Origin: a virus | Lineage: Duplodnaviria; Caudoviricetes | Reading direction: 5' to 3' (one strand) | Virus record (IMG/VR): IMGVR_UViG_3300029982_000009 | Length of the DNA: 64,000 nucleotides | The notes under the pieces: generated by a model | The model's database searches: none | What the model was told of the DNA's origin: nothing | The model's input: only the letters and a program-made list of their open reading frames with translations | Shown here: positions 6,469 through 51,415 of the stretch, one piece after another | How positions within the stretch are numbered: the first letter of the stretch is position 1 | Layout of the letters: the number at the start of each line of letters is the position of its first letter | Position numbers and translations under genes: made by a program

Positions 6469-6807
6469 ATGTGTTTACTAGAAAAACGAGTTCTTGCTGC
6501 AATACGCGATCGTGTAGAGATAGAAAACGAAATTGCCATAATTTATGACGAATACCAGCGGTTAAAACTTAAAATTTTAGGATATACCTGGGGAAACGAT
6601 GGTAATTATGGAACAACCTTTACGCAGGTCTCTGAGGTGTGCATAATAGAATCGATCACTGAAAAACATATCACTATTAACCCAAATAGATATAACGAAT
6701 TAGTAATGCCAACCGTTTGGGTAAGTAATCCGAATTGGCAGGATGAAGCGACAGAAATTTTAAAGGAAATACTAGGTCATAATTTGCTTGAAAAGTTATC
6801 TGAATAA
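6469..6807 (+). CDS. hypothetical protein, paralogue family B (ends LLEKLSE)
   Basis: IYDEYQRLKLKILGYTWG aligned with 5917 ORF. Confidence 0.75.
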   Translation: MCLLEKRVLAAIRDRVEIENEIAIIYDEYQRLKLKILGYTWGNDGNYGTTFTQVSEVCIIESITEKHITINPNRYNELVMPTVWVSNPNWQDEATEILKEILGHNLLEKLSE

Positions 6808-11917: not shown

Positions 11918-14900
11918 TTACCACCCTTGGAACTCCGCGCTCCATCCAGCACCGCCATCTCCGCCCGTTCCGGATGTCGTATAGGTTGCCGCCGTGTAGC
12001 CGGAACCGCCCGACGCCGTGCAAGAGGCCAAAGCGCCTCCGCTCCACGTCGGGGTAACCGTCCCGCCCGACCCTCCGCCACCCAGAATGTTGAAAGTTAC
12101 ATTCGTCCCTGTGCCGCATCCTGCGCCAGCCTGTACCACCGTGCAACTGGACAGCGCCCCGGAAGTGACGCCCAGTGTTGCTTTGGGCTGGCTCGTGCAG
12201 GTCCCGCTTGTTGCCGCAGCCTCAGGCACGGTAACCAGGCCCCCAGGACCACCAGCCGTGTAGATGGATGGCCAAGTCGAAACGGCAGCTTGCGAGGAAA
12301 GAACTACGACACCCCCGCCTCCACCTGATCCTGCTCCTGTAGAGTTTGCAGCAGGAGGTGCGCCGTATCCTCCACTCGCGTCAATGATGCCCGTGTGAGT
12401 GCCGTCTGTACCCGTTATCGAGGCGCACATCAGGATGACAGGTGCTCCACCATTTCCGGCTGCTCCCCCTGTGCTACCTCCCTGCTTGCCACCCCCGCCA
12501 TAGGAATATAGGCCATCCAGCCCAGCTCCCAAGGCAAGGAAATTGTGCTTAAGGCCGGAGGAAAGCGTACCTCCATTTCCACCGTTTCCGCCGTTTGCTG
12601 CTCCTGCCGCTCCACCGCCAGTCGTACCAATATTGGTAGCGTAGTAATAGGGTAGCCCAGCAGTACCGGCAGCAGTGCCACCACCCGACCCACCGCCACC
12701 GCTGCTATCCATCGGGTAGCCATTTCCATATCCAGCCATTGCGCCATTCGCTTCAATCGTCCCTGCAATCGTGCAGGCGCCGGATACGTGGACGATCAAA
12801 CCTGCCGCAGAGTTCACCGTCACCGTGTTGCCATAAGGAACGGTGAAGGTCGTGTAATTATACTCGCCGCTCATGTTGCCGCTGGCGTTGGTGTTCGAGC
12901 CATTTGATCCGTCGCCAAAATATTGCAGCCAGCCGGGGACGTTCGGACTCATAGCCGATCCGGTGGCTGCAACGGTGCAACTGCCCCCCAACGTGCAAGT
13001 CTGCCCATTTACCGTGGTCGAACTGTTGGCCAGCGCAGAGTTAGGTATCGCGCTGGCGATCACTGACAAAGATGGTGTAGAGGCAGAGTTGCTCACCGTT
13101 GGAACCAGCCAGGAAGGCCAAGTGCCCGCCGAAGCTGCAAAGTTTGTAACCGTGCCGAATGAAGTGCATCCGGTGCCAGAGGCGCTGGCTCCACTTGGCC
13201 CGAACGTATAGGTGCAAGATGAACCGGCCCCCGCGTTGCCCGTCGACCCGGAAGTCAGTTGCCAGCTTTGCGTCGCCGGGTTGTAGCCGAGAATGTCTTC
13301 CGCCTGCTTGGCCTGGGCGCTATTCCAGCCCTGCGCGTTCAGCATGGGATAGGTCGCATTCCATGCCGCGCACTGTGCGCTTGTGCCGCAGCCAACAACC
13401 ACCGCCCCCATCTTGCTTCCTCCGTTGCCCCCATAAGGTGGCAACCCCATGAACAGTCCATCGCGATGAGGGCCGGAAAGCACCATTCCATACGGCGTAG
13501 TTAGTTGGCCGCGTCCGGGGATATACCCTGTTAAACTAACCGCTGGGTAACCGTCATAAAGTGTCGGATCGTTGTTGTTTGCAAACTGGCCCTCGTAATC
13601 GTTACTCCCGAATTGACCGGCTGATTGGAAGTAGAAATTGGAATGCTGGCCGCCTTCTTGATAGTTATTGAAGCCGAAATTCAACCCATTGATCTTGATT
13701 CTGAAATAATGCGGCTGCTCCAGCGTATCCCCCGTGGCGAACGTACCGACAACCGGAGTCGTGACGATTGCCGATCCATCCACAGCTCCGGTGGCCCCGT
13801 TGTAGACATTTAGAGTTCGTCCTTGCGGGTAGATGTGATACGGATTATTGTTCACAGCCACCACCGGCGTCCCGGTAATGCCCGCACCTGCATTTAAAAT
13901 AGTGCATCCTGAGAGCGCGGTGCCTACCACTGTGGGATAGATCATCGGCGCGGAAGTGTAAGTGATGCCTGTAATCTGGATGGTAGGAGGCGAGTTTACT
14001 GTGTAACTTGTGCCGCCAGTCGCTGTGCAAGCAGTAACTGCGCCGCCGCTCACCGACACCGTAGCCGTACCGCCTGAGCCTGTCAAGGCTGGGGCATAGC
14101 CATAGGACCGCGTATTGATGGTGCCGTTCACTCCGGCGCCGTTGTAAATCGTCAATGTGTTTCCGCTGGCACTGGAAACAATAGGATATATCACCCGGAC
14201 AGTTCCGTCCAGCCCACTCTCTCCGCTGACGGCCATCCCGTTCGTCACACCCGGAACTACCCAATCGGCATCCATACCAAAGCCATAACCGGTAAGTCCG
14301 CCCGCAGCTACTGTCGAGTTATTTGTGAGAGGGTAATTCATCACATCCACGGTGATGTGCGTCCCGTCCGGCACTGCCGTGATATGAGAGCATTGCCAAC
14401 TAGGGTCCACCTTGTCGAACATGCAGACCGTCTGGCCGGTACTGAATCCTGTCGAACTGGCAACAGGGATCGTCACGTTGGACAGCGGCATGGTGTTCGT
14501 GCCGCCCGTTTGGGAGCCGGTGGTTATAGCCGCCGTGGTCGTCGTTGTGGCAGTTGTCAGGCCAAACGTTGAGTCCCAATTGGCTGCGCTGGAGCCGGTA
14601 AATGTGCCTGCACTGATGCCTGAGATATACCCTGCGTTGTAGCCATGCGTAACGTCAATCATGGCCAAGTCGTTCCCCCAGCTTCCGGTGACTCCCTGAG
14701 TCTGCGTGAGGGCAAATGTGCAGGTAGCTCCGCAGGTCTGTGTATTGAGCCTGCCCTCTGGAACATTCCCCGTCTCTCCCAGGCGTGAGCGCCATTCCAG
14801 GCCCTCGTTCTGTGCTAAACCTTGGCCCACACTAAAGGCTCCTGTAAGGAGCGGTATCGAGTCACCTGGCGCATAACTGGTCAAGCTGATGTTATGCCCA

Positions 14901-16222
14901 GCCTGCGAACCCGACGAATGCACCCACATCTGGGTAATCATAGTATTCAGACTGGTTTCATCCCCGTCAAAATCTCGCGTACCCCCGAAAACGGATTGTT
15001 GAAGATTAAGCGCGGCAGCAGGATGCGGAGTATTGCCGCTTCCGGCACTGGTAATCGTTTGAGCAAACAGGGGCTGGGCATAGTGCCGATTATCCCCAAG
15101 TGACATGCCACCATTACAAATCACCTGCGGTGGACCCCATCTATAATCAGTCACACAACCGCTAGTAGTTGTGGCGGCAGGCCCATTCACTGGAATGCCA
15201 TAATCTGTCGTATTTCCCATGCCCCAGGGCTGTGCTTCCGTCTGCGCATAGTTCGCGGGAGCCAGAATGGAACAGGCAACCGACGGAGCGGCGAGGCACG
15301 CCAGAAACGAGTTGGCAATGCCGTTGTTCCCCGTTCCTGCTGGGGTTTGCTGCTGCGCTGCGTTGATCTGGCCGTTCGTAGTGCCAGCCACGACGGTGCC
15401 TGGGAATGTGCCATTGCCAGTGGACCCGCCCAGGGTAATAGACGGTGCGCCGGTGCCAACGCTTAAACCTCCTGGGAGCGTGTTTAATTGTGATGGTCCG
15501 CTACCAGTCTGTGCTCCGTTTGTCATCGCGTTCCAAGTTGTCGAGCCGCCTGGTCCGCATCCAGTGCCGTCTGCTTTGGCATAAAGTCCTGTGCAACTTC
15601 CGCTTGCCCCTCCAATAATTACTGGGTTCACTAGTCCGGATCCTAGAGGTCCAGAGAATAAGGCCTCACCGCCTGAATTATACATCGTTAATAACGGGGT
15701 ACCGGAACCTATAATTATATTAGTAGCCTGGAAGTTACCCCCTGGTGTGGTTGACGTACCATTTGCAGGTAATGCAGCATTAGCGGTCGCTTGGGCGGCA
15801 GTTTCTGCGGTAATAGCTCTGGCGGTTTCACCTGAAAAAATAGTTCGTTCATCGGTTATCGATGTTATCACACTAGCATTTGTTAGAACAATCGCAACAG
15901 GAATATCGGTTACACCAAAATTCGTCGTTTTCACTGCGGGTACGCACGATGCCGAGGTATTAAGATAGATATAATTTAGGGATGAGGCAGTAAGTGTTAA
16001 TGTCCCTCCGCTATATATAAATATTGACCCTTGGCAGTTAACAGTTCCAGCCGATATTTCTGCTTGCAATCCTGTGCCAGCGGTAACCCAATACCCGGGC
16101 GCAGTACCGTTAGAATATTTTGCATTAAGCGCAGAAATTGGAGCAATTTGAGTCGCTGGATTCTGCGCAAGGCTAAAGGGGCCTATACAGGCTAACATTA
16201 TTGATAAAATTATTTTTCTCAT
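11918..16222 (-). CDS. signal-peptide-bearing Gly/Thr-rich tail-fibre-like protein
   Basis: MRKIILSIMLACIGPFSLA signal peptide; Gly-rich GGxGG C-terminus; overlaps baseplate wedge stop (ATGA); GC-rich body. Confidence 0.75.
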   Translation of the reverse strand: MRKIILSIMLACIGPFSLAQNPATQIAPISALNAKYSNGTAPGYWVTAGTGLQAEISAGTVNCQGSIFIYSGGTLTLTASSLNYIYLNTSASCVPAVKTTNFGVTDIPVAIVLTNASVITSITDERTIFSGETARAITAETAAQATANAALPANGTSTTPGGNFQATNIIIGSGTPLLTMYNSGGEALFSGPLGSGLVNPVIIGGASGSCTGLYAKADGTGCGPGGSTTWNAMTNGAQTGSGPSQLNTLPGGLSVGTGAPSITLGGSTGNGTFPGTVVAGTTNGQINAAQQQTPAGTGNNGIANSFLACLAAPSVACSILAPANYAQTEAQPWGMGNTTDYGIPVNGPAATTTSGCVTDYRWGPPQVICNGGMSLGDNRHYAQPLFAQTITSAGSGNTPHPAAALNLQQSVFGGTRDFDGDETSLNTMITQMWVHSSGSQAGHNISLTSYAPGDSIPLLTGAFSVGQGLAQNEGLEWRSRLGETGNVPEGRLNTQTCGATCTFALTQTQGVTGSWGNDLAMIDVTHGYNAGYISGISAGTFTGSSAANWDSTFGLTTATTTTTAAITTGSQTGGTNTMPLSNVTIPVASSTGFSTGQTVCMFDKVDPSWQCSHITAVPDGTHITVDVMNYPLTNNSTVAAGGLTGYGFGMDADWVVPGVTNGMAVSGESGLDGTVRVIYPIVSSASGNTLTIYNGAGVNGTINTRSYGYAPALTGSGGTATVSVSGGAVTACTATGGTSYTVNSPPTIQITGITYTSAPMIYPTVVGTALSGCTILNAGAGITGTPVVAVNNNPYHIYPQGRTLNVYNGATGAVDGSAIVTTPVVGTFATGDTLEQPHYFRIKINGLNFGFNNYQEGGQHSNFYFQSAGQFGSNDYEGQFANNNDPTLYDGYPAVSLTGYIPGRGQLTTPYGMVLSGPHRDGLFMGLPPYGGNGGSKMGAVVVGCGTSAQCAAWNATYPMLNAQGWNSAQAKQAEDILGYNPATQSWQLTSGSTGNAGAGSSCTYTFGPSGASASGTGCTSFGTVTNFAASAGTWPSWLVPTVSNSASTPSLSVIASAIPNSALANSSTTVNGQTCTLGGSCTVAATGSAMSPNVPGWLQYFGDGSNGSNTNASGNMSGEYNYTTFTVPYGNTVTVNSAAGLIVHVSGACTIAGTIEANGAMAGYGNGYPMDSSGGGGSGGGTAAGTAGLPYYYATNIGTTGGGAAGAANGGNGGNGGTLSSGLKHNFLALGAGLDGLYSYGGGGKQGGSTGGAAGNGGAPVILMCASITGTDGTHTGIIDASGGYGAPPAANSTGAGSGGGGGVVVLSSQAAVSTWPSIYTAGGPGGLVTVPEAAATSGTCTSQPKATLGVTSGALSSCTVVQAGAGCGTGTNVTFNILGGGGSGGTVTPTWSGGALASCTASGGSGYTAATYTTSGTGGDGGAGWSAEFQGW

Positions 16223-42900: not shown

Positions 42901-42934
42901 GACAAAGAAACGGCACTAGTGCCGTTTCTTTGTC
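42901..42934. terminator. perfect 34 bp palindrome, probable terminator
   Basis: GACAAAGAAACGGCACT|AGTGCCGTTTCTTTGTC. Confidence 0.7.
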
Positions 42935-42936
42935 AG

Positions 42937-43131
42937 TTACATGCTTAAGGTTTTTAAAAATTGCCGTTCTATTAGATATCTAGCCGCTGCCCAGGCAGAT
43001 TCTTCATTATGTGTCATTCCGGATAATAGAAAAATTTCGTGGGAAGAACGGTGAACTATTTCGTAAAATTTTCCAATTTTACGGCATCGTGCAGTCGTAT
43101 ATATAGTAGATACAAATTCTTTATCGGTCAT
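42937..43131 (-). CDS. small paralogue family A
   Basis: MTDKEFVSTIYTTA...EESAWAAA...FLKTLSM; ATGA overlap start. Confidence 0.7.
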   Translation of the reverse strand: MTDKEFVSTIYTTARCRKIGKFYEIVHRSSHEIFLLSGMTHNEESAWAAARYLIERQFLKTLSM

Positions 43132-43346
43132 TGCGAAAATTGTTCTAAAACTATAAGCTGAGTGGTTTTCCATGCAATTCCCCATAATTCTGAATGGCCA
43201 ATAATTCCCGAAGGAAAAAATTTGGTTGGAGTTAACCGAGTGAATTCTTCCGGCTCATCACCGATGCTTGCAATATACGCATAGCCGCCAAACCAATAGC
43301 ATTTTGCATTTGGATAAATCGCTTTAACCTGCTCTTTGTATGTCAT
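43128..43346 (-). CDS. small paralogue family A
   Basis: MTYKEQVKAIYPNA...LWGIAW...LEQFSQ. Confidence 0.7.
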   Translation of the reverse strand: MTYKEQVKAIYPNAKCYWFGGYAYIASIGDEPEEFTRLTPTKFFPSGIIGHSELWGIAWKTTQLIVLEQFSQ

Positions 43347-43567
43347 TCTGTGAATTTGTCTATCATATCTTCCGCAATTTTTGTATATGCGTTTTGCCAA
43401 GCGGCCTGCTCGTCGGCATACAACATACTAATTGCCTTATCATATTGCCCATATGAATCAACGTATTCTTCTCGCGGATCCGAGCAAATTATTTGGAAGA
43501 AATAATTATGCCATTCAATACATTTTGAATTTGGAAAAATCTTTTGAACTTGTTTTTTGTAATTCAT
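43343..43567 (-). CDS. small paralogue family A
   Basis: MNYKKQVQKIFPNS...AAWQNAY...IDKFTE. Confidence 0.7.
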   Translation of the reverse strand: MNYKKQVQKIFPNSKCIEWHNYFFQIICSDPREEYVDSYGQYDKAISMLYADEQAAWQNAYTKIAEDMIDKFTE

Positions 43568-43608
43568 TCTGAGAATCCCCAAATTCTAGTATTAATTTTA
43601 AGAATTTT

Positions 43609-43824
43609 TTAAAATCGGTAAACAATCCTACCTAAAGAGAGCGAATACGGAGAAAGTTCAACCTGAACGAAATCCCCTGGTTCAAGACGAATATTGTTTT
43701 TACGCATTCTGCCGCCTAGGTAACCAATGACTGTTTGTCCACCAGGAATTTCTACAATCCATGTTGTGTTGGGAAGAGTTTTAACGATTTTACCTTTTAA
43801 TTCGACTAGATCAACTGATGCCAC
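43609..43824 (-). CDS. infA: translation initiation factor IF-1
   Basis: G.IV..LPNT...VE...G..V...L.GRMRKN.IR...GD.V.VELSPY.L..GRIVYR; AGGAG RBS, GTG start. Confidence 0.93.
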   Translation of the reverse strand: MASVDLVELKGKIVKTLPNTTWIVEIPGGQTVIGYLGGRMRKNNIRLEPGDFVQVELSPYSLSLGRIVYRF

Positions 43825-43836
43825 GTTACTCCTGAT

Positions 43837-44037
43837 TCATTTTGAAAATTGGGTTAAAATTTTTGAGTTAATTGTTTTAGCAGCCCATTGCCATGCCATT
43901 TCTTCACTGATAAAACTAATTGCTAATATTTGTTCTACTTTAATTATAACATATTTAGTGTATTGATGCGTGGAAGAATTATCATTGGTGCATTTTGCGT
44001 CTGGATAAATCGATAATACAAATTCTTTATCGGTCAT
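43837..44037 (-). CDS. small paralogue family A
   Basis: MTDKEFVLSIYPDA...EEMAWQWAA...LTQFSK. Confidence 0.75.
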   Translation of the reverse strand: MTDKEFVLSIYPDAKCTNDNSSTHQYTKYVIIKVEQILAISFISEEMAWQWAAKTINSKILTQFSK

Positions 44038-44234
44038 TGCGCTAACCTATCTATTAATCGATCCGATAAAATCGCTGCCGCCGTCGTCCAGGCTTCTTCC
44101 TCGTTTTCGGCGATAACCGAAAATAAGAAAGGCCACTCCCCACGAAAAAATCCGTAGTGTCCTTTTAAAATAGATACCCCTGGGGAAATTCTAATTTTAG
44201 GGCATATTGAAATAGCTAGATCTTTATCAGTCAT
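44034..44234 (-). CDS. small paralogue family A
   Basis: MTDKDLAISICP...EEEAWTTAA...IDRLAQ. Confidence 0.75.
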   Translation of the reverse strand: MTDKDLAISICPKIRISPGVSILKGHYGFFRGEWPFLFSVIAENEEEAWTTAAAILSDRLIDRLAQ

Positions 44235-44481
44235 GATTGTAATGCCATAAAAAATTCCGCTTCTCTGAGGTTTTTAAACGGACCATATTCATATGTTTCA
44301 CCGGTATTATATACTACTTCAACCTTTATTTTACGGCAAAAATTCATACGATAATACAGAATTAATTCTGGGTAATTATTAATAGTTTTAACTATCGTTG
44401 GATTTTTACGAAGGATCACGAATAAAATGAAGACAATCGTGAAACATATATATATATCGCATAAAATATTAATATAATCAT
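44231..44481 (-). pseudogene. membrane protein gene apparently frameshifted in an (AT)6 tract
   Basis: ATG 44481 (ATGA overlap) is out of frame with the downstream ORF; removing one AT unit from 44446-44457 gives an 82 aa protein with an N-terminal TM helix. Confidence 0.5.
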
Positions 44482-44681
44482 TCTGATAATCTTGCTTGCA
44501 GCTCGGCATTAATAAAATTTTTTGCACTGCGCCACGCATCGGCGGCAGTCGAACACCAGGCTGATATTGCTTCCTTGTCGGAACGACCCGAAAAACTAAT
44601 ATTAAAGCATCCTAAAAATTGGTTGTGCCGAACATATGCACCGGGATAAATCGATAGCACGAATTCTTTATTGTTGTTCAT
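44478..44681 (-). CDS. small paralogue family A
   Basis: MNNNKEFVLSIYPGA...ADAWRSA...QARLSE. Confidence 0.75.
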   Translation of the reverse strand: MNNNKEFVLSIYPGAYVRHNQFLGCFNISFSGRSDKEAISAWCSTAADAWRSAKNFINAELQARLSE

Positions 44682-44896
44682 TCTGATAATCTTTCAACTA
44701 AGTTTTCATTGATCTTATCGGCCGCATCTTTCCAGGCATCGCTAGATGTTTTACTCCATTTCGATAGCGGATAAGGAAATACATCTACTATATTAGCATA
44801 CTTCTCAATGCGCCAACCATTAAACAGTGGGCTGAGATAGGCTCGCGCATATGGATATTGAGCGAGAACAATTTTTTTATTCGGGTTCTGCATCAT
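44678..44896 (-). CDS. small paralogue family A
   Basis: MMQNPNKKIVLAQYPYA...SDAWKDAA...VERLSE. Confidence 0.75.
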   Translation of the reverse strand: MMQNPNKKIVLAQYPYARAYLSPLFNGWRIEKYANIVDVFPYPLSKWSKTSSDAWKDAADKINENLVERLSE

Positions 44897-45105
44897 TCTG
44901 ATAGACATCGTAAAAATTGCCATTCGATCCTTTCAATTGTATCTTCCCATGCAAATTCTTCGTCACACCCCCAACTTGACAGCGTCGCGCCGGAATTATT
45001 TTGAAGTATTCTCCAGATCGGCTTGCCTGTGACGGGTGAACGGCCAGATACCGCAATCGCGTCCGGATAAACTGCCCGGACGCGATTTATTAGTACGCTT
45101 TTCAT
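44893..45105 (-). CDS. small paralogue family A
   Basis: RVRAVYPDA...EEFAWEDT...LRCLSE. Confidence 0.75.
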   Translation of the reverse strand: MKSVLINRVRAVYPDAIAVSGRSPVTGKPIWRILQNNSGATLSSWGCDEEFAWEDTIERIEWQFLRCLSE

Positions 45106-46283
45106 TATTTGATCGCTTTCAGCAGGATAGTATCTGCATTCATGCTTTCCCGCAATGAAGTTTCTACCGCCTTGATATTATCGAACCACTTGAACGCTCC
45201 AACCTTGCTCATACTGTTAAACTGCTTTAGTTGTTCGGCGATCTTGCGCAGCGTTTTCGACGTGCTCTTGGTCGGGTCCATGTTAAGAATTTTGTTGCCC
45301 TTAACGTCAAGTGTTGAATTCGGAAGAGCAACATAGCGTCCAATTTTTCTCGTCTTGGTATTTAGAACCCATAATACGGTTGACTTGAGAATTTGAACAG
45401 GGTCAATGCTAGTGAGATGCATTTCCGGCTGAACCTGAAGGAAGCGCAACTTGCTAACAACCTTATCAGGAGTTGTCATCTTCTTCTTGCGGGACTTGCG
45501 CGTGCTCTTCTTGACGATACCGAAACCGGTAATGTCAGTGATGGCTGTTTCCCACCAGGCAACCGATGCTTTCAATTCGCGCTTGCCAAGATGCGCATAC
45601 GCTTCGTTGATTTCATCATTCTTGCCAGCAAGTGCAATCTTGAATTCCGAAAGATACACATTTGCAAACTCAATCAGATCCTTGGTACGATTACCAGGGG
45701 CAGTCGTTTTCGGATCATGCAAAATCTGCATGATATTTCGTTCCGACTTCTGATAATTCGATTCAACGAACTGGTCGAACGCGGCGTTGATCTCACCCTT
45801 CACCCGACGCAATTTTGCGTCAATGAAGTCTTGAATATTCGGCTTCGCGACCCCGTCAACTGCCGGAACTGAAACTTTCATATTTTCAAGGCATTTGCGC
45901 AGGTCACGAACAATAAACTTGCTTTCACGGAATCGTATCTTGAATCCCATCTGAATCATGCGGATCATCCAAGCCGATGCGTGCGGAATTTGCAACTTGC
46001 TCTTTTTTAATGCCTGAACTAATTCTGGCATATTGTTTGAAACGGCCAAGGCTTTCAGAGCAAGCTCGTGACCATGATCGTCATCCTGGGTTGCTGTATA
46101 CCAGGCAAATGCTGCGAGCAGTTGGCGATCATATTCATCCTGGGACCACTGCGCCTGCTCTTCAACGGAAGGCCAATAGGGCTCGTCAAGGCCGATATAC
46201 TTCGCCCCTTCTCCCTTGAAACGGAGTATCGGGGTTGGCTTTACATGCTCTGGCTTGAATGATCTTTTTACTGTCTTCGTCAT
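45105..46283 (-). CDS. conserved T4-like phage hypothetical protein
   Basis: KL.F......L.SIDP..I......LWV.NTKTRK.GRYVA...L.VKG..I......S..KTLRK C-terminal motif. Confidence 0.8.
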   Translation of the reverse strand: MTKTVKRSFKPEHVKPTPILRFKGEGAKYIGLDEPYWPSVEEQAQWSQDEYDRQLLAAFAWYTATQDDDHGHELALKALAVSNNMPELVQALKKSKLQIPHASAWMIRMIQMGFKIRFRESKFIVRDLRKCLENMKVSVPAVDGVAKPNIQDFIDAKLRRVKGEINAAFDQFVESNYQKSERNIMQILHDPKTTAPGNRTKDLIEFANVYLSEFKIALAGKNDEINEAYAHLGKRELKASVAWWETAITDITGFGIVKKSTRKSRKKKMTTPDKVVSKLRFLQVQPEMHLTSIDPVQILKSTVLWVLNTKTRKIGRYVALPNSTLDVKGNKILNMDPTKSTSKTLRKIAEQLKQFNSMSKVGAFKWFDNIKAVETSLRESMNADTILLKAIK

Positions 46284-46289
46284 GATTTA

Positions 46290-46318
46290 AATATACAAGA
46301 ATACGATACACTTGTCAA
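46290..46318 (-). promoter_or_regulatory. sigma70-type promoter, leaderless
   Basis: TTGACA-N17-TATATT, ATG 6 nt downstream. Confidence 0.75.
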
Positions 46319-46334
46319 CCACTATTTTCAGATT

Positions 46335-46540
46335 TTTAAGTTGTTGATTTTAAAGGGCCGATATCGTAAATATGGCGCCGTATGGCCCCAATATGACCCC
46401 AGGAGTAGCTGAGTACCATCATTATAGTGGGGTCATATTGGGGCGATATAAGTCCTTTGTTTTCAATGGCGCATTTTTCTTGGTTTTTAGGCTGATTTCG
46501 CTTGCATTCGGTACCGGAGTTTGCTATACTTATTTTAGTG
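46335..46540 (+). repeat. promoter-linked ~200 bp intergenic module, copy 2
   Basis: same boxes as copy 1; internal 17 bp perfect inverted repeat 46385-46401/46428-46444; TTGCAT (46502)-N17-TATACT (46525). Confidence 0.85.
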
Positions 46541-46574
46541 AATGGAACAGAGCTAACGAAGCAGAAGTTGGCTG

Positions 46575-46603
46575 TTGACAAGAATCAGGAACTTTGCTAC
46601 ACT
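46575..46603 (+). promoter_or_regulatory. sigma70-type early promoter
   Basis: TTGACA-N17-TACACT. Confidence 0.8.
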
Positions 46604-46631
46604 TAACAAGTAGTGAAAGGGGTAACACCGC

Positions 46632-47669
46632 ATGGCAACAGTGAAAATCATTCAGGGTTCGTATCGCAACCAGGAAATCAAAAACCAAACGTTTACGCTG
46701 ATTAATGGGTACGTGGAAACGCCGAATTCGAAGCATGTTACGGTCGAAGGAACAAAACTTTGTGGCCGTCCGACAGCTCGAATTCGCGTGAAGAGCCAGA
46801 AGGATTTTGTCATTGCCGGCACGGTTGAAACGGTTGATGATCAGATTTCTGTTGAAGAGGAATCCTCTGAGCCGGAAGTTGTTGAAACAGATGCAGCCGT
46901 ACTTGCGCGTATCAGTGATAGGTTTCAGATTTTAACTGAACTGACCCAGGGTGCTCTCACTGGAGATATTCGCGCATTGTTTGTAACCGGCGCCCCGGGA
47001 GTTGGAAAGACTTTCGGTGTTGAAAAGACGCTGCAAGATGCGGGGTTGGTTGAAATTTTTTCCGATCTTCCTCCTCGGTATGAAGTTATTTCTGGTGCAA
47101 TGTCTGCGGTCGGTATGTATATGAAGTTGTACGAATTCCGTGACGATAACAATGTTCTCGTCATTGACGATTGCGATTCGGTTTTTACCGACGAACTTTG
47201 CTTGAACCTGCTGAAAGCTGCATTGGATACGAGCAAGCGCCGCATGATTCACTGGAACGTGGATTCGGTTTCACTTCGGAAGGGTGATTGCCCTAACCAA
47301 TTTGAGTTCAAGGGTTCTATTATCTTCATTTCGAACATTAACTTCAAGAAGGTTCGTTCTGAGCGTATGCGTAACCATCTCGAGGCCCTCATGAGCCGTT
47401 CGCATTTTCTTGATCTTACTGTTCATACGGATCGCGAAAAGTTGCTCAGAATTGAAGACCTGGTTACGAATCATAAGATGCTTTCCCAGTTCAAACTGTC
47501 CGATAAAATGAGCGCAAAGGTTATGAAGTTCGTGCGTGATAACGCTTCGAAATTTAACGAGCTTAGCCTGCGCACTGTCATTAAATTGGCCGGTCTCGCC
47601 AGGACGTTCGACGAGAATGACAAGTGGATGCGAGTTGCTGAACTTTCTATGATGGGAAACCAATTTTAA
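46632..47669 (+). CDS. AAA-family ATPase (conserved T4-like phage family)
   Basis: GAPGVGKT Walker A, VLVIDDCD Walker B, LNLLKAALD, F.F.G.IIFISN, AL.SR. Confidence 0.88.
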   Translation: MATVKIIQGSYRNQEIKNQTFTLINGYVETPNSKHVTVEGTKLCGRPTARIRVKSQKDFVIAGTVETVDDQISVEEESSEPEVVETDAAVLARISDRFQILTELTQGALTGDIRALFVTGAPGVGKTFGVEKTLQDAGLVEIFSDLPPRYEVISGAMSAVGMYMKLYEFRDDNNVLVIDDCDSVFTDELCLNLLKAALDTSKRRMIHWNVDSVSLRKGDCPNQFEFKGSIIFISNINFKKVRSERMRNHLEALMSRSHFLDLTVHTDREKLLRIEDLVTNHKMLSQFKLSDKMSAKVMKFVRDNASKFNELSLRTVIKLAGLARTFDENDKWMRVAELSMMGNQF

Positions 47670-47703
47670 AATAGTGGGATTTAAATCCCACTATTTTAAA
47701 ATT
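47662..47703. terminator. perfect 42 bp palindrome
   Basis: AATTTTAAAATAGTGGGATTT|AAATCCCACTATTTTAAAATT. Confidence 0.7.
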
Positions 47704-47718
47704 AAAGGAGATGCTTAA

Positions 47719-47916
47719 ATGAAAAATGGTGTTTACGAGATTACCGATCCTATCAATGTTAAGAAGGTTTCGGATGAATTGGGCAACATTGTTACCGGTA
47801 AGGGTGGCGCTGAAATTAACATTAATGGAATTACCATTGCAGGTAATAGAGTTACCATTCGATGGGACAACCTATCTAGAGAGGTAAATATGGTTGTTTT
47901 GTCGTCTGCTAATTGA
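47719..47916 (+). CDS. hypothetical protein
   Basis: AAGGAG RBS, 65 aa. Confidence 0.7.
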   Translation: MKNGVYEITDPINVKKVSDELGNIVTGKGGAEININGITIAGNRVTIRWDNLSREVNMVVLSSAN

Positions 47917-48114
47917 GACGTCTGTTCTTCTTGCGGTCAAAATATGAACGCCGAAAACCTATAATTAAATGGCAAACAAAACAGATAAGAATGCGAAAAT
48001 TTAAGTTATTCTAGCTAGTTAAGTCGAATGCAAGATTAATGAGATGCGTGTTGCTGCTCTTTTTTGAAGAGTGGGAAACAATTTTAATCCATTAATTAAA
48101 GAAAGGATTGTATT

Positions 48115-48615
48115 ATGGTAAAATATTTAATACTCGCCTACAAGGCTGATAATGAAGATTACTGTATGGGGTGTCACGTGGCCTCCTACTCGTCCGATTT
48201 TCAGTATTTAAATACCACCGACCGCGAGGAGGCTCTTCGTTTCCTTGTGGATAAAATTACTTACAAAGTCGAGGACCGCGAATATGGCTATGACTTTACC
48301 ATTTTCATCGATGGCAAGACCTCGGAGTACAACAATCTTAATGGTGAAACTACAGATTATGACAATCTTATCACCAATTCCGAAGGTGAGTATGACTACG
48401 ACGAAGAGCCCGGTCGAAAACTCATGGCTGATGCAAGAGCCACGATTAAGCGTAACGAATTCGACGCGTTGGCAAAGGCCGCGGCCGCCGCACGCCGAGC
48501 TCAAACCGAGGCGGAAGAAGCATATAAGATTGAAGAAGCACGTAAAGAGCGGGAGAGGGAAGCGCATGATCGGAAAGAATTCGAACGCCTAACAGCAAAA
48601 TTTGGCGGTAAATAA
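48115..48615 (+). CDS. hypothetical protein with C-terminal coiled coil
   Basis: AAGGA RBS; E/R/A-rich C-terminus. Confidence 0.7.
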   Translation: MVKYLILAYKADNEDYCMGCHVASYSSDFQYLNTTDREEALRFLVDKITYKVEDREYGYDFTIFIDGKTSEYNNLNGETTDYDNLITNSEGEYDYDEEPGRKLMADARATIKRNEFDALAKAAAAARRAQTEAEEAYKIEEARKEREREAHDRKEFERLTAKFGGK

Positions 48616-48797
48616 TGAAACGATTGATTGCTTTTTGGAAAGCGCTAACCGGTGGATACGATTGCCAGGTATGCGGGCGATCGGGGTGTAAGCCCGTTGA
48701 CTATACCGATGGTTCAACTCATTGGAGTTGTTATAATGGATGCCGTTATTGGGAGTACGACGACGGCACCATCGAACGTATGCTAGACGGCCTGTAA
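48615..48797 (+). CDS. small Cys-rich (zinc-ribbon-like) protein
   Basis: CQVC...C...C..GC. Confidence 0.6.
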   Translation: MKRLIAFWKALTGGYDCQVCGRSGCKPVDYTDGSTHWSCYNGCRYWEYDDGTIERMLDGL

Positions 48798-48847
48798 AAA
48801 CATTTTGGAATTGCCCAAGGTAGAAAGAAGGATTATGTTCTTCATTA

Positions 48848-49084
48848 ATGGCAAATAATTTGGGAAAGTCGAATATAATGGCATCGAAGATTTCGCAGTA
48901 TGCAAAAGAACAAGTAAAATACCACTATCCCACCGCCCGAGTGATGCGCTGTGGATCCTGGTGTAAAATAATAACACACCTCGGTAAACCATTGCAGCCA
49001 GCTTGGAGTTCAAATTCCAATCGTACTTGGAGGGAAACATGGATCTGCTTGCAGGAGCTACTATTGAAGAGATTATCTCAGTAG
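48848..49084 (+). CDS. small paralogue family A
   Basis: KEQVKYHYPTA...TWRETW...LKRLSQ; alternative start 48878. Confidence 0.7.
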   Translation: MANNLGKSNIMASKISQYAKEQVKYHYPTARVMRCGSWCKIITHLGKPLQPAWSSNSNRTWRETWICLQELLLKRLSQ

Positions 49085-49293
49085 AAGCGAAGAATAAAAT
49101 TCTTGCAATGTTTCCGAATGCCGTTACGAAAAAGGCATATCTCTTAGACAATGGATATCGAATTGTTGAATCCAATGCCAACTATCCTACTAGCACATTG
49201 CTTTCTGATAAATTTTCGCATTCAATAGATACTGCCTGGATAGATTCTTGGTATTATATTCAGGAAAAGATAGTAGAAAGATTGTCGATATGA
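49039..49293 (+). CDS. small paralogue family A
   Basis: GGAGGG RBS; KNKILAMFPNA...DTAWIDSW...VERLSI. Confidence 0.7.
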   Translation: MDLLAGATIEEIISVEAKNKILAMFPNAVTKKAYLLDNGYRIVESNANYPTSTLLSDKFSHSIDTAWIDSWYYIQEKIVERLSI

Positions 49294-49520
49294 CCGAAGC
49301 AGAAAGAAAAATGCGAGAATTTAGACCCGGATGTTATTTAAAATACAATCCTTCCGGTAGATTTCAAATTCATCGATCCAATTTGTCTTGGTATGCCGGG
49401 TATACTGGATATAATGCACTTGGCATCGAATCAAAAACCAAGGACGGTGCCTGGGAAAACGCATTATCATTATATCAATTGGGTGAAGATCTATTGTTAA
49501 TTCGGGTATTAAGCCAATGA
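49290..49520 (+). CDS. small paralogue family A
   Basis: ATGA overlap; DGAWENA...IRVLSQ. Confidence 0.7.
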   Translation: MTEAERKMREFRPGCYLKYNPSGRFQIHRSNLSWYAGYTGYNALGIESKTKDGAWENALSLYQLGEDLLLIRVLSQ

Positions 49521-49726
49521 ATTACAAAGCAAAAGTTAGGGAAATTTATCCCAAGGCAAATTGGATATTCGAGATTAGAACTTCTAACGGCGAACAAAAA
49601 ATTTTATTTAGGATTTTTTTAACTCCGACTCGATCTCTGTATCCGGCTGATAAAAACCTAGAACTTGCATGGAAAAATGCATATGAGCATTGCGAGCAAG
49701 AATTGTTAAAACGATTGGAGCAATAA
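49517..49726 (+). CDS. small paralogue family A
   Basis: MNYKAKVREIYPKA...ELAWKNAY...LKRLEQ. Confidence 0.75.
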   Translation: MNYKAKVREIYPKANWIFEIRTSNGEQKILFRIFLTPTRSLYPADKNLELAWKNAYEHCEQELLKRLEQ

Positions 49727-49974
49727 TGTCTTCTCCGAAACAACGGATGATTAAAGAAAAAGTCGTTAAAATTTACCCTGATGCCAAATTGCGTCGCAAG
49801 TATGGAATATATTATCGAGTTTTTCGCTCGCCTATGCTAGATTCTTGGATGGAGGAACCAGGCCTATTAACTTTTTGCACCCCAATTGATGGTTGGTTCA
49901 GATCATCCGACAAGGCGTGGGAGTATGCCTGGAAAGAAATACAAACAGATTTAATTGAGAGGTTTGCATATTGA
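49726..49974 (+). CDS. small paralogue family A
   Basis: KEKVVKIYPDA...DKAWEYAW...IERFAY. Confidence 0.75.
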   Translation: MSSPKQRMIKEKVVKIYPDAKLRRKYGIYYRVFRSPMLDSWMEEPGLLTFCTPIDGWFRSSDKAWEYAWKEIQTDLIERFAY

Positions 49975-50486
49975 AAAATATTTTTCTATCTTCAGATGCC
50001 CATTTTTCGCATCGTAACATTATTAAGTATTGCGATAGACCATTTTTTTATGTCGAAGAAATGAATGAGCGACTCATTCAGAACTGGAATGAGGTTGTTC
50101 GAAATGATGATGAAGTTTATTATTTAGGTGATTTTGGATTACACAGTCCTGAAGTGCTTATGCCATTTAGAAATCGATTAAATGGTAATTGGAAAATGTT
50201 TATCGGCGGCAATCATGATCGAAATTCATTATTGCAAAGTCCGGGACTAGCCGAGCAAGTAGTTAAATTCAGTGAGAAAAAAGTTGTTAATTTTGAACTA
50301 GACGGTATTCCTTTATGGTTAAGTCATTGCCCAGCAAATGTTCTACCTAACGATCCAATTAATCTTTACGGGCACACTCACGATCATGTTCCTATGCTAG
50401 CGGGTAACAACCGTAAAATTAACATTGGGGTTGACGCTTGGAATTTATATCCAGTAGCTTGGGAGCAAATTAAAGCCTTGCTATAA
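49971..50486 (+). CDS. calcineurin-like metallophosphoesterase
   Basis: SDAHFSH, LGDF, GGNHD, GHTH, NIGVDAW; TTG start. Confidence 0.88.
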   Translation: MKNIFLSSDAHFSHRNIIKYCDRPFFYVEEMNERLIQNWNEVVRNDDEVYYLGDFGLHSPEVLMPFRNRLNGNWKMFIGGNHDRNSLLQSPGLAEQVVKFSEKKVVNFELDGIPLWLSHCPANVLPNDPINLYGHTHDHVPMLAGNNRKINIGVDAWNLYPVAWEQIKALL

Positions 50487-51227: not shown

Positions 51228-51415
51228 ATGTTCAAGTCATTCAAATATCGATTAACTCCAACCAAAGAACAAGAGAAAACTCTTGTGGAATGGCAAGGGC
51301 AGTTGAGATTTGTTTGGAATAATTTTCTTAAGCAAAATATTGATAGATATCAATTGGAAAAGAGATTCATCTTGGAAACAGGAAGCCACTTCTCTTTAGA
51401 GAAGTGGTAGTTCAC
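51228..51415 (+). mobile_element. tnpB: internally deleted IS200/IS605-family tnpB remnant with right end
   Basis: MFKSFKYRLTPTKEQ..TL...G..RFVWN HTH_OrfB-like start joined to GAAGCCACTTCTC-TTTA-GAGAAGTGG-TAGTTCAC right-end hairpin. Confidence 0.75.

Follow-up and report, generated by a model that had tools for sequence, protein, structure and literature searches.

Two divergent arrays of thirteen short, similar genes in one phage raise the question of what these proteins are and what they may do for the virus. The original prediction regarded them as translationally coupled paralogues with conserved ends and a hypervariable middle, forming an expanding early library for anti-defence or host takeover. 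The observation itself is confirmed and its interpretation is partly supported. All 13 open reading frames are present where they had been placed. A search of the window (the whole 64-kb stretch of DNA analysed) with a profile derived from 109 members of the family gave 13 copies of 64–83 aa with E values from 1e-8 to 5e-22, all within the two arrays, and no other match. The minus-strand array contains 8 copies (42937–45105) and the plus-strand array contains 5 (48878–49974). The features of the locus are as follows.

46290..46318, minus strand: sigma-70-like promoter of the minus-strand operon, TTGACA-17-TATATT, 11/12, best match in 42.5–50.6 kb, 7 nt upstream of the 392-aa gene
45105..46283, minus strand: 392-aa gene, phrog_11903, heading the minus-strand operon
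44893..45105, minus strand: c1, 70 aa, HMM E 1.6e-13
44678..44896, minus strand: c2, 72 aa, start ATGATG, HMM E 5e-16
44478..44681, minus strand: c3, 67 aa, HMM E 2e-17
44231..44539, minus strand: small ORF outside the family, listed as 102 aa, probably shorter
44034..44234, minus strand: c4, 66 aa, HMM E 5e-11
43837..44037, minus strand: c5, 66 aa, the modelled copy, HMM E 5.5e-22
43609..43824, minus strand: IF-1 homologue, 71 aa, GTG start with AGGAG, PF01176 E 4.8e-19
43343..43567, minus strand: c6, 74 aa, HMM E 8.8e-19
43128..43346, minus strand: c7, 72 aa, HMM E 1.1e-14
42937..43131, minus strand: c8, 64 aa from the ATGA-coupled ATG, HMM E 2e-18
42901..42934, no strand assigned: perfect 15-bp hairpin directly after the c8 stop, self-complementary match, no U tract
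46575..46603, plus strand: sigma-70-like promoter of the plus-strand operon, TTGACA-17-TACACT with TG, 10/12, second-best match
46632..48797, plus strand: four genes preceding the array, namely an AAA-type ATPase (345 aa, phrog_1250), a 65-aa ORF, a 166-aa ORF and a 60-aa Cys-rich ORF
48878..49084, plus strand: c9, 68 aa, or 78 aa from 48848, HMM E 2.3e-12, weakest member
49039..49293, plus strand: c10, 84 aa from the ATG at 49039, family domain from near 49081, HMM E 3.5e-15
49290..49520, plus strand: c11, 76 aa, HMM E 1.4e-8
49517..49726, plus strand: c12, 69 aa, HMM E 3e-16
49726..49974, plus strand: c13, 82 aa, HMM E 5.5e-18
49971..50486, plus strand: metallophosphoesterase, 171 aa, final gene of the plus-strand operon, PF12850 E 3.8e-5, phrog_547 E 9.6e-44

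Most copies overlap their neighbours, by ATGA (c1/c2, c2/c3, small ORF/c4, c4/c5, c6/c7, c7/c8, c10/c11, c11/c12) or by TAATG (392-aa gene/c1, c12/c13), and c13 is joined to the phosphoesterase gene by TTGA. The start of c10 is ambiguous (ATG at 49039 or earlier), and therefore c9 and c10 are not ATGA-coupled. The minus-strand array is not unbroken, being interrupted by the IF-1 gene and the small unrelated ORF, and the hairpin after c8 is, from its sequence, the likely end of this operon. The small ORF matches neither the family profile nor Pfam; at its 5′ end it runs into c3, and in this part it has a (TA)n tract that differs by a 2-nt indel in a variant strain, only 62 aa of it are called by one pipeline, and it is probably over-called. 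Public pipelines missed c9 in the loci covering it (L001–L003, L006).

The predicted consensus is borne out by the alignment (xxxKxxVxxIYPxA...AWxxAxxxIxxxLxxRLSx), in which W is invariant and P nearly invariant. The family has no sequence match in Pfam, PHROG or PDB, and about 550 clusters (50% identity), mostly full-length at 60–100 aa and all metagenomic, match its profile at E≤1e-3. Judged by sequence, the 13 genes are an unnamed small-protein family known only from metagenomic sequences.

Structure modelling covered one copy, c5, and gave a confident model (AF2 pLDDT 94.8) of alpha1-beta1-beta2-beta3-alpha2 topology (H3–10, E15–21, E26–33, E36–41, H45–65), nearly all best matches of which are dsRBDs. 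In a wide fold search the top 39 matches were dsRBD-type domains, including two mitoribosomal proteins (Z 5.2–7.8); in a second listing all 50 were of this type (Z 6.1–7.8), with Z 6–7.8 to dozens of solved dsRBDs. Against PF00035 clusters of the ESM Atlas, predicted dsrm domains, TM-scores were 0.65–0.80 for the c5 model and 0.68–0.76 for the Atlas's own model of the same protein. The copies are thus predicted to adopt a dsRBD-like fold, c5 by its model and the others by keeping the same core positions. The conserved ends are the two helices (K-E-x-V-x-x-I-Y-P-x-A in helix 1 and T/S-E-E-x-A-W-x-x-A-W-x-x-I-x-x-x-M/L-L-x-K-L in helix 2), whose conserved residues appear to be spaced as expected for a buried helix face. 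Variation falls in the three-stranded sheet and its hairpins, which differ among copies in both sequence and length, and the beta1-beta2 loop, which carries indels, is the most variable. A conserved scaffold with a diversified part is therefore found as proposed, but "hypervariable" is too strong for the whole middle, where the beta-sheet residues Y29, I31, L38 and S39 are conserved.

Topology and size, as modelled, are common to the family and to canonical dsRBDs, and we take the A-x-x-x-A spacing with which helix 2 opens to recall KKxAKxxAA of these domains. Unlike them, the phage proteins are stand-alone and occur in arrays whose copy number ranges from 13 to at least 46, and none of the 109 members matches the Pfam dsrm profile. 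The basic RNA-binding motif KKxAK is replaced by an acidic helix cap, T/S-E-E-x-A-W: positions 45–46 are 52–56% acidic, and K/R are rare there. No conserved residue of the family alignment points to a common active or binding site. By analogy, the family would be more like the "black sheep" dsRBDs, which bind proteins (Gleghorn and Maquat 2014, cited in PMC11722364).

Related giant phages have the same layout, in which a gene of about 400 aa (orthologues of the 392-aa gene, 47–57% identical) heads an array with an embedded IF-1 gene; the gene order is identical in two further contigs, and all related loci examined have IF-1 within the array. In one relative, a gene with an RF-1 domain is found two genes after IF-1. 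Together with the dsRBD-like fold and the presence of ribosome hibernation factors and a release-factor domain among the lower-ranked fold matches, this suggests that the copies may bind structured RNAs or the ribosome and, with IF-1, shift translation to phage messages. We consider this explanation doubtful, taking into account the acidic region in place of KKxAK, the pI from 4.8 to 9.95 across the 13 copies, the absence of dsrm profile matches, and the fact that the loop making the minor-groove contact in dsRBDs is the most variable one and carries indels.

The time of synthesis was judged from promoters and RNA. The two top sigma-70-like matches of the region point outward from 46.3–46.6 kb, and both arrays lie downstream of this module as predicted, the plus-strand one being four genes (2.2 kb) past its promoter. 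No T4-type late motif (TATAAATA) was found in 42.9–50 kb. Contigs from RNA libraries, 100% identical, cover c5–c7 (43797–43947 for c5; 43180–43500 and 43508–43657 for the c6 region), IF-1, the 392-aa gene and the ATPase gene, and those from two studies span 46537–46875, the region of the plus-operon promoter; these are assembled metatranscriptome-library contigs, in which contaminating DNA is possible, and the plus-strand array has no such contig. Synthesis of the copies early in infection, as had been proposed, is probable. The same promoters and the lack of a late motif in the region make it highly improbable that the copies are packaged in the head and injected, with the conserved N-terminus as a capsid-targeting leader, as in T4 internal proteins. 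M-T-Y/D-K-E-x-V does, in our reading, loosely resemble the T4 leader MKTYQEF, but this segment is helix 1 of the predicted fold rather than a detachable leader, and no (L/I)-x-E cleavage pattern follows it in the alignment.

Comparison with the variant strain, 95–96% identical, revealed 109 differences, all common to two independent runs. Pooled pN/pS of the copies (0.71) exceeded that of the 392-aa gene (0.12; Fisher p=0.003) and did not depart from neutrality (p=0.12). IF-1 had zero changes, and its contrast with the near-neutral change and loss of copies also argues against a joint role of the copies with IF-1 in translation. Recent amino-acid changes reached 12.9% in the variable middle versus 11.5% in helix 2. 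Positive diversifying selection was not detected, because pN/pS is near neutral and changes are not confined to the middle. In the variant strain a mid-protein block of c1 is replaced, c2 is frameshifted by a 1-nt deletion in an A7 run, and c9 by a 1-nt deletion at 48965. One contig joins 49232 to 49926 (a 693-bp deletion with in-frame fusion of c10 and c13), by which c11 and c12 appear to be deleted. Changes also reach conserved sites, namely the near-invariant Pro in c5 (P12S) and the helix cap in c4 (E46G, E47A).

Such neutrality and losses at just 4–5% divergence would be expected of functionless or decaying duplicates, carried along with little selection on individual copies. In our opinion this is unlikely: the ORFs are intact, the core motif persists in lineages with only 47–57% identity between their 392-aa genes, and operon position and overlapping start-stop codons are conserved. 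The family also comprises about 550 clusters with a confidently predicted fold, and c5, c6 and c8 show few changes.

The library cannot be called expanding: its copies are old (20–40% identical within this genome), and the only recent events seen are losses, the two frameshifts and the 693-bp deletion. Yet copy number differs widely among related phages, with 14 copies at the locus and 24 in the whole 125-kb record in L009, 33 in 16 kb in L007 and 46 in 21 kb in L015. Copies are gained and lost quickly between strains.

Summarizing these data, the most likely reading, with chances that we consider about even, is that the arrays encode an early, individually dispensable panel of small binders on a dsRBD scaffold, serving host takeover or counter-defence. 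Host polymerase would transcribe both divergent operons soon after infection from the host-type sigma-70-like promoters, and the array genes would be translated as coupled strings. Through its own variable surface, each copy might recognise a separate host target, which could be a protein or a small signal, and the copies together would constitute a redundant panel. The phage could then do without any single copy, and this would account for the frameshifts, deletions and near-neutral change by which closely related strains differ. The IF-1 gene embedded in every relative examined points toward translation, and the binder panel leaves it unaccounted for.

Hyperplastic regions of T4-type phages, with their PeSL (promoter-early stem-loop) ORFan cassettes (PMC2839356, PMC4122927), are similar in that they too group small, early genes that are non-essential and functionally uncharacterised, with content differing between close relatives. 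There each gene has a promoter and a stem-loop, whereas here genes are coupled with one promoter per operon, and all array genes belong to one family of common descent. Relatives of the 392-aa gene occur in T4-type and other large phages; fold matches to the AF2 model of its product were uninformative. Large eukaryotic DNA viruses also carry multigene families, such as ASFV MGF and those of poxviruses. Bacillus phage G has about 35 copies of a zinc ribbon, a lineage-specific expansion (PMC7824862). In these expansions, too, one small domain is present as many diverged tandem paralogues in a single large viral genome, and related viruses differ in copy number, but the fold and family are other, and here the short coupled genes form two divergent early operons with IF-1 embedded.

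Among published systems, the closest precedent is Acb4 (anti-CBASS 4) of Bacillus phage SPO1 (PF13876, PDB 9E4W), a dsRBD-derived immune-evasion sponge of 96 aa, encoded by a single gene, with extra helices and a basic ligand pocket, whose tetramer traps 3′3′-cGAMP (PMC11722364). The structural neighbours published for Acb4 (ribonucleases, release factors, ribosome hibernation factors) belong to the same classes as those of our family. It is conceivable, if improbable, that the paralogues oligomerise in the same manner, each sequestering a different immune signal (cyclic di-/oligonucleotides) that the coupled phosphoesterase degrades. This would agree with the shared small core fold, the apparent early expression and the metallophosphoesterase coupled to c13, with a phosphoesterase gene after the array in relative L009 as well. 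Against it, the proteins, at about 66 aa, have two helices rather than the five of Acb4, they form arrays, none of the 109 members matches PF13876, and the alignment has no conserved basic or aromatic pocket residues beyond the core. 9E4W is absent among the fold matches listed for c5. By sequence the family does not belong to Acb4. The precedent means that phages have made a dsRBD-type fold into an immune-evasion binder.

Thirteen small open reading frames (ORFs) were listed in two groups, eight on the minus strand (c1-c8) and five on the plus strand (c9-c13). After trimming to family-fitting starts, all of them fit the consensus of the original prediction, with the Trp invariant and the Pro nearly so, and a profile made from 109 members recognized the 13 copies in the 64-kb window (E 1e-8 to 5e-22) and none outside the arrays. 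The existence of the 13 paralogues is thus confirmed by both the alignment and the profile search. The start of c10 is ambiguous, and public pipelines did not call c9 in L001-L003 and L006, the loci that extend over it. A perfect 15-bp hairpin is situated 3' of c8.

Main features of the array region in the window
42937-45105, minus strand: eight family copies (c1-c8)
43609-43824, minus strand: IF-1 homologue (71 aa), embedded in the array
44231-44539: small unrelated ORF (102 aa as drawn), spanning an AT-rich (TA)n tract at 44340-44480, between c3 and c4
45105-46283, minus strand: 392-aa gene, heading the minus-strand operon
48848-49974, plus strand: five family copies (c9-c13)
49971-50486, plus strand: phosphoesterase gene

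Translational coupling, also claimed previously, is confirmed by eight junctions with an ATGA overlap, two with TAATG (392-aa gene/c1 and c12/c13) and one with TTGA (c13/phosphoesterase gene), all read in the DNA, but the minus-strand array is broken by the IF-1 gene (PF01176, E 4.8e-19) and likewise by the small unrelated ORF. The (TA)n tract of the latter carries 3-, 2- and 3-nt indels in a natural variant strain; because of these, including the 2-nt one, the ORF is probably over-called and its 5' part non-coding, and probably the last ~40-60 codons alone are gene-like. Directly upstream of the plus-strand array, a 60-aa ORF (48615-48797, plus strand) without a family match has a CxxC...C...C spacing that suggests a small zinc ribbon.

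No match to the family was obtained in profile searches of Pfam, PHROGs and PDB, nor among 50,697 phage records that were searched by blastn (7-kb region) and by tblastn (one member). Apart from the proteins of the window itself, a word-indexed protein search gave just a few close metagenomic relatives. The exhaustive profile search of 1.84 billion representatives gave 553 clusters at E<=1e-3, mostly full-length and of 60-100 aa, all from metagenomic sources and every one named 'hypothetical'. A few of these proteins consist of 2 to 4 fused copies of the same domain, and such tandem copies were the genuine fusions; no informative domain fusions were found among the matches. Two long matches, P0010 (1813 aa) and P0020 (2461 aa), were spurious, being DUF3586 and globin repeat proteins.

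The AlphaFold2 model of c5, obtained with the 109-sequence alignment (pLDDT 94.8), comprises helix 3-10, strands 15-21, 26-33 and 36-41 and helix 45-65, i.e., alpha1-beta1-beta2-beta3-alpha2 in 66 aa, and this predicted order agrees with a dsRBD-like topology (helix, three strands, helix, ~65-70 residues). In a wide, all-against-all structural search the best 39 rows were all of dsRBD type (Z 5.2-7.8), and in a second look the same was true of the best 50 of 50 rows (Z 6.1-7.8), with 115 chains at Z>=5. The domains in the 39 rows belong to RNase III, Dicer, ADAR, PKR, Staufen, mitoribosomal proteins and others. ESM Atlas clusters with PF00035 were superimposed on the c5 model with TM 0.65-0.80 and rmsd 1.8-2.5 A, and the Atlas's own independent model of the c5 protein gave TM 0.68-0.76 with the PF00035 clusters. 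Since the match lists are so uniform, the assignment of the dsRBD fold is considered firm, each score being middling in itself (single Z below 8). The prediction of a c5 homodimer (score 0.28, mark 0.42) carries no weight either way.

The column profile shows conservation at V7, I10, Y11, P12, A14, Y29, I31, L38, A48, W49, A52, W53, I56, M60, L61 and L64, which, judging by their spacing, probably form a buried face. The loop between beta1 and beta2 is the main site of indels, its columns being mostly gaps or variable, and the pI of the 13 copies ranges from 4.8 to 9.95. The earlier view of a conserved scaffold carrying a diversified part is in agreement with the predicted structure of c5.

In canonical dsRBDs of PF00035 (dsrm), helix 2 starts with a basic KKxAK and the beta1-beta2 loop is conserved (GPxH); the family has neither feature. 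Its positions 44-46 read T/S-E-E (52-56% acidic, 10-14% basic) and continue as x-A-W; the positions of the two motifs were equated by their pattern rather than in a printed structural alignment. Neither the 13 copies of the window nor the 109 members matched the PF00035 profile at E<=10, and no dsrm match was present in the 125-kb relative with 24 copies. Because T/S-E-E-x-A-W replaces KKxAK and the beta1-beta2 loop is prone to indels, canonical binding of dsRNA is unlikely. In our opinion, the chance is about even that the copies make up a set of small early binders directed at the host, with the putative anti-defence or host-takeover role proposed at first.

The nearest precedent in the literature is Acb4 of phage SPO1, a tetrameric sponge that derives from a dsRBD and captures CBASS signals. 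Its protomer of ~96 aa has helices a1-a3 at the N-terminus and a4-a5 at the C-terminus around a three-stranded sheet, and its tetramer binds cyclic dinucleotides in basic pockets (PMC11722364). The c5 model is smaller (66 aa), with one predicted N-terminal and one C-terminal helix; none of the 109 members matched PF13876 at E<=10, and the column profile reveals no conserved residues that might form a basic pocket. The Acb4 structure 9E4W was absent among the fold matches listed for c5. With these differences in sequence, size and pocket, it is very unlikely that the copies are sponges of the Acb4 type. HicA toxins (PF07927) also have a dsRBD-like fold, but the family has no PF07927 match and no column with a conserved His, the catalytic His being expected in the sheet.

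The order ~400-aa gene (orthologous to the 392-aa gene), array with IF-1 inside, giant Ig-domain protein and dUTPase is shared by several related giant-phage contigs, which differ in the number of copies.

Family copies and embedded IF-1 genes in the window and related giant-phage loci
Window: longest contig 292,778 bp; 13 copies in 64 kb
L009: 125 kb; 14 copies in the locus, 24 in the record as a whole, which has a second cluster; IF-1 at 2397-2612
L007: 353 kb; 33 copies in 16 kb; IF-1 at 6520-6735
L015: 359 kb; 46 copies in 21 kb; IF-1 at 17301-17516

Copies of the window are 20-40% identical to one another and to their best matches in the relatives, while the 392-aa gene is 47-57% identical among the same relatives; therefore, the duplications are old and the copies evolve faster than this gene. 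An 'expanding' array, as originally suggested, is not evident in the window's genome. Many diverged tandem single-domain paralogues with numbers varying among genomes are characteristic of lineage-specific multigene families of giant phages, into which the array fits; tandem families of this kind are known, e.g., ~35 zinc ribbons in phage G (PMC7824862).

All related giant-phage loci that were examined have IF-1 embedded among the paralogues. Because of this constancy, binding of the copies to RNA or the ribosome, with a role directed at translation, is the main rival explanation, and an RF-1-domain gene near the array of one relative also speaks for it. Against RNA binding stand the acidic motif at helix 2 and the indel-rich loop, and we regard this role as rather unlikely. 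The RF-1-domain protein in question (111 aa, PF00472, of ArfB-like size) is encoded on a contig of GCA_015689235.1 two genes past IF-1, at the array end, and is the second translation-related gene in that array block. Four relatives have a DUF7717 (PF24835) gene of ~107-123 aa in the group of small genes that diverges from the ~400-aa gene (1508-1831 in L007 and 8525-8845 in L015); in these two loci the surrounding small genes are family copies according to profile matches. The DUF7717 gene is absent from the array region of the window.

Early expression, another part of the original prediction, is reasonably supported. Within 42.5-50.6 kb, the two best sigma-70-like promoter matches point outward from the spacer at 46.3-46.6 kb, and no T4-type late motif was found in 42.9-50 kb. 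In two studies, three metatranscriptome libraries yielded contigs with 100% identity to the window that cover c5-c7, IF-1, the 392-aa gene and the beginning of the ATPase gene (the first of the plus-strand operon). They hint at transcription of these genes, though carry-over of DNA could give the same contigs. No RNA-library contigs fell on the plus-strand copies, which is uninformative on their expression. A capsid-targeting leader was rejected on the basis of fold and promoter type, and packaged proteins are given little credence. In T4-type PeSL cassettes each ORFan has its own early promoter and stem-loop, whereas the array genes overlap (ATGA/TAATG) and strong promoter matches occur at 46.3 and 46.6 kb only.

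The window's proteins recur on contigs as long as 292,778 bp, and many peat metagenomes contain identical DNA. A giant tailed phage is indicated by the neighbouring genes, which encode a clamp-loader-like ATPase, a DNA polymerase III alpha fragment, dUTPase, thymidine kinase and a 930-aa Ig-domain protein. Large phages such as PA5oct, Cr30 and phiM12 have distant relatives of the 392-aa gene; in Pseudomonas phage PA5oct the homologue lies among neck and tail genes, and the array is absent there. Its AlphaFold2 model (pLDDT 87.6) gave generic helical matches only, and as an IMG/VR query it retrieved no record beyond one already known. Elsewhere in the window, a 1434-aa ORF (11918-16222, minus strand) lies in a stretch of 55-58% G+C, compared with 33-47% in the remainder, and a 60-aa HTH_OrfB_IS605 fragment (51228-51410, plus strand) seems to be what is left of an IS605-family element that decayed in the phage; its counterpart in L009 (9897-10982) is a full 361-aa TnpB-type gene with OrfB_IS605 and Cas12f1-like_TNB domains.

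The variant strain, represented by two runs from another study, is 95-96% identical to the window. Its differences are real, since all 109 in the overlap are common to both runs. Substitutions were evaluated by Nei-Gojobori counting.

Changes between the window and the variant strain
392-aa gene: pN/pS 0.12
IF-1: no change
Eight minus-strand copies, pooled: pN/pS 0.71

The pooled pN/pS of the copies is distinct from that of the 392-aa gene (Fisher p=0.003) but not from neutrality (p=0.12), and the copies flanking the unchanged IF-1 have 1-17 residue changes each. The share of changed residues is 5.1% in helix 1, 12.9% in the middle and 11.5% in helix 2, without a significant difference between the middle and the helices (p=0.17). 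With the middle so close to helix 2, recent change is not confined to the 'variable core' assumed earlier but spreads beyond it. Positive selection is not demonstrated by these values.

In the same strain a 1-nt deletion frameshifts c9, and c2 is frameshifted within an A7 run. In one contig 49232 is followed directly by 49926, a 693-nt deletion that removes c11 and c12 and fuses c10 with c13 in frame at the shared TGCCTGG of the A-W motif; a low-depth contig of the same run retains c12. Single copies are therefore dispensable, and the arrays shrink as well as grow. That most copies are simply drifting, a reading to be set beside the near-neutral pN/pS and the frameshifts, appears improbable to us. 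Gene content is known to differ between close relatives in the hyperplastic early regions of T4-type phages (PMC2839356, PMC4122927), and the same is seen for the array in the variant strain. The plus-strand operon of this strain has a second small indel polymorphism, in which 44 other letters take the place of 432 bp at 47669-48102, including a 65-aa ORF (47719-47916).

An extension of the binder panel, which we consider unlikely, is that the arrays are a combinatorial repertoire, with a variable sheet for each target and helix codons acting as recombination joints for in-frame chimeras. The sheet of each copy would serve to neutralise a separate host defence or host factor, and the conserved helix codons would double as joints at which paralogues recombine. 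The c10-c13 fusion would then be one such event in a natural strain, and the arrays a built-in source of new specificities on the dsRBD scaffold.

The family itself, its dsRBD fold without the RNA-binding motif, the conserved pairing with IF-1 and the observed in-frame fusion of paralogues are new. Giant phages spend kilobases on arrays of tiny genes, and few parts of phage genomes are so poorly understood; one such array family now has a confident predicted fold and a defined early operon, and its gain and loss are documented in natural strains. Taken with Acb4, the family suggests a repeated remodelling of the RNA-binding dsRBD fold into small binders by phages. The constant pairing with IF-1 is a concrete lead. 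Should the copies prove to act on host defences or on the translation machinery, the ~550 metagenomic clusters would offer a large and so far unused supply of inhibitors, and the family would be a model for viral multigene diversification.
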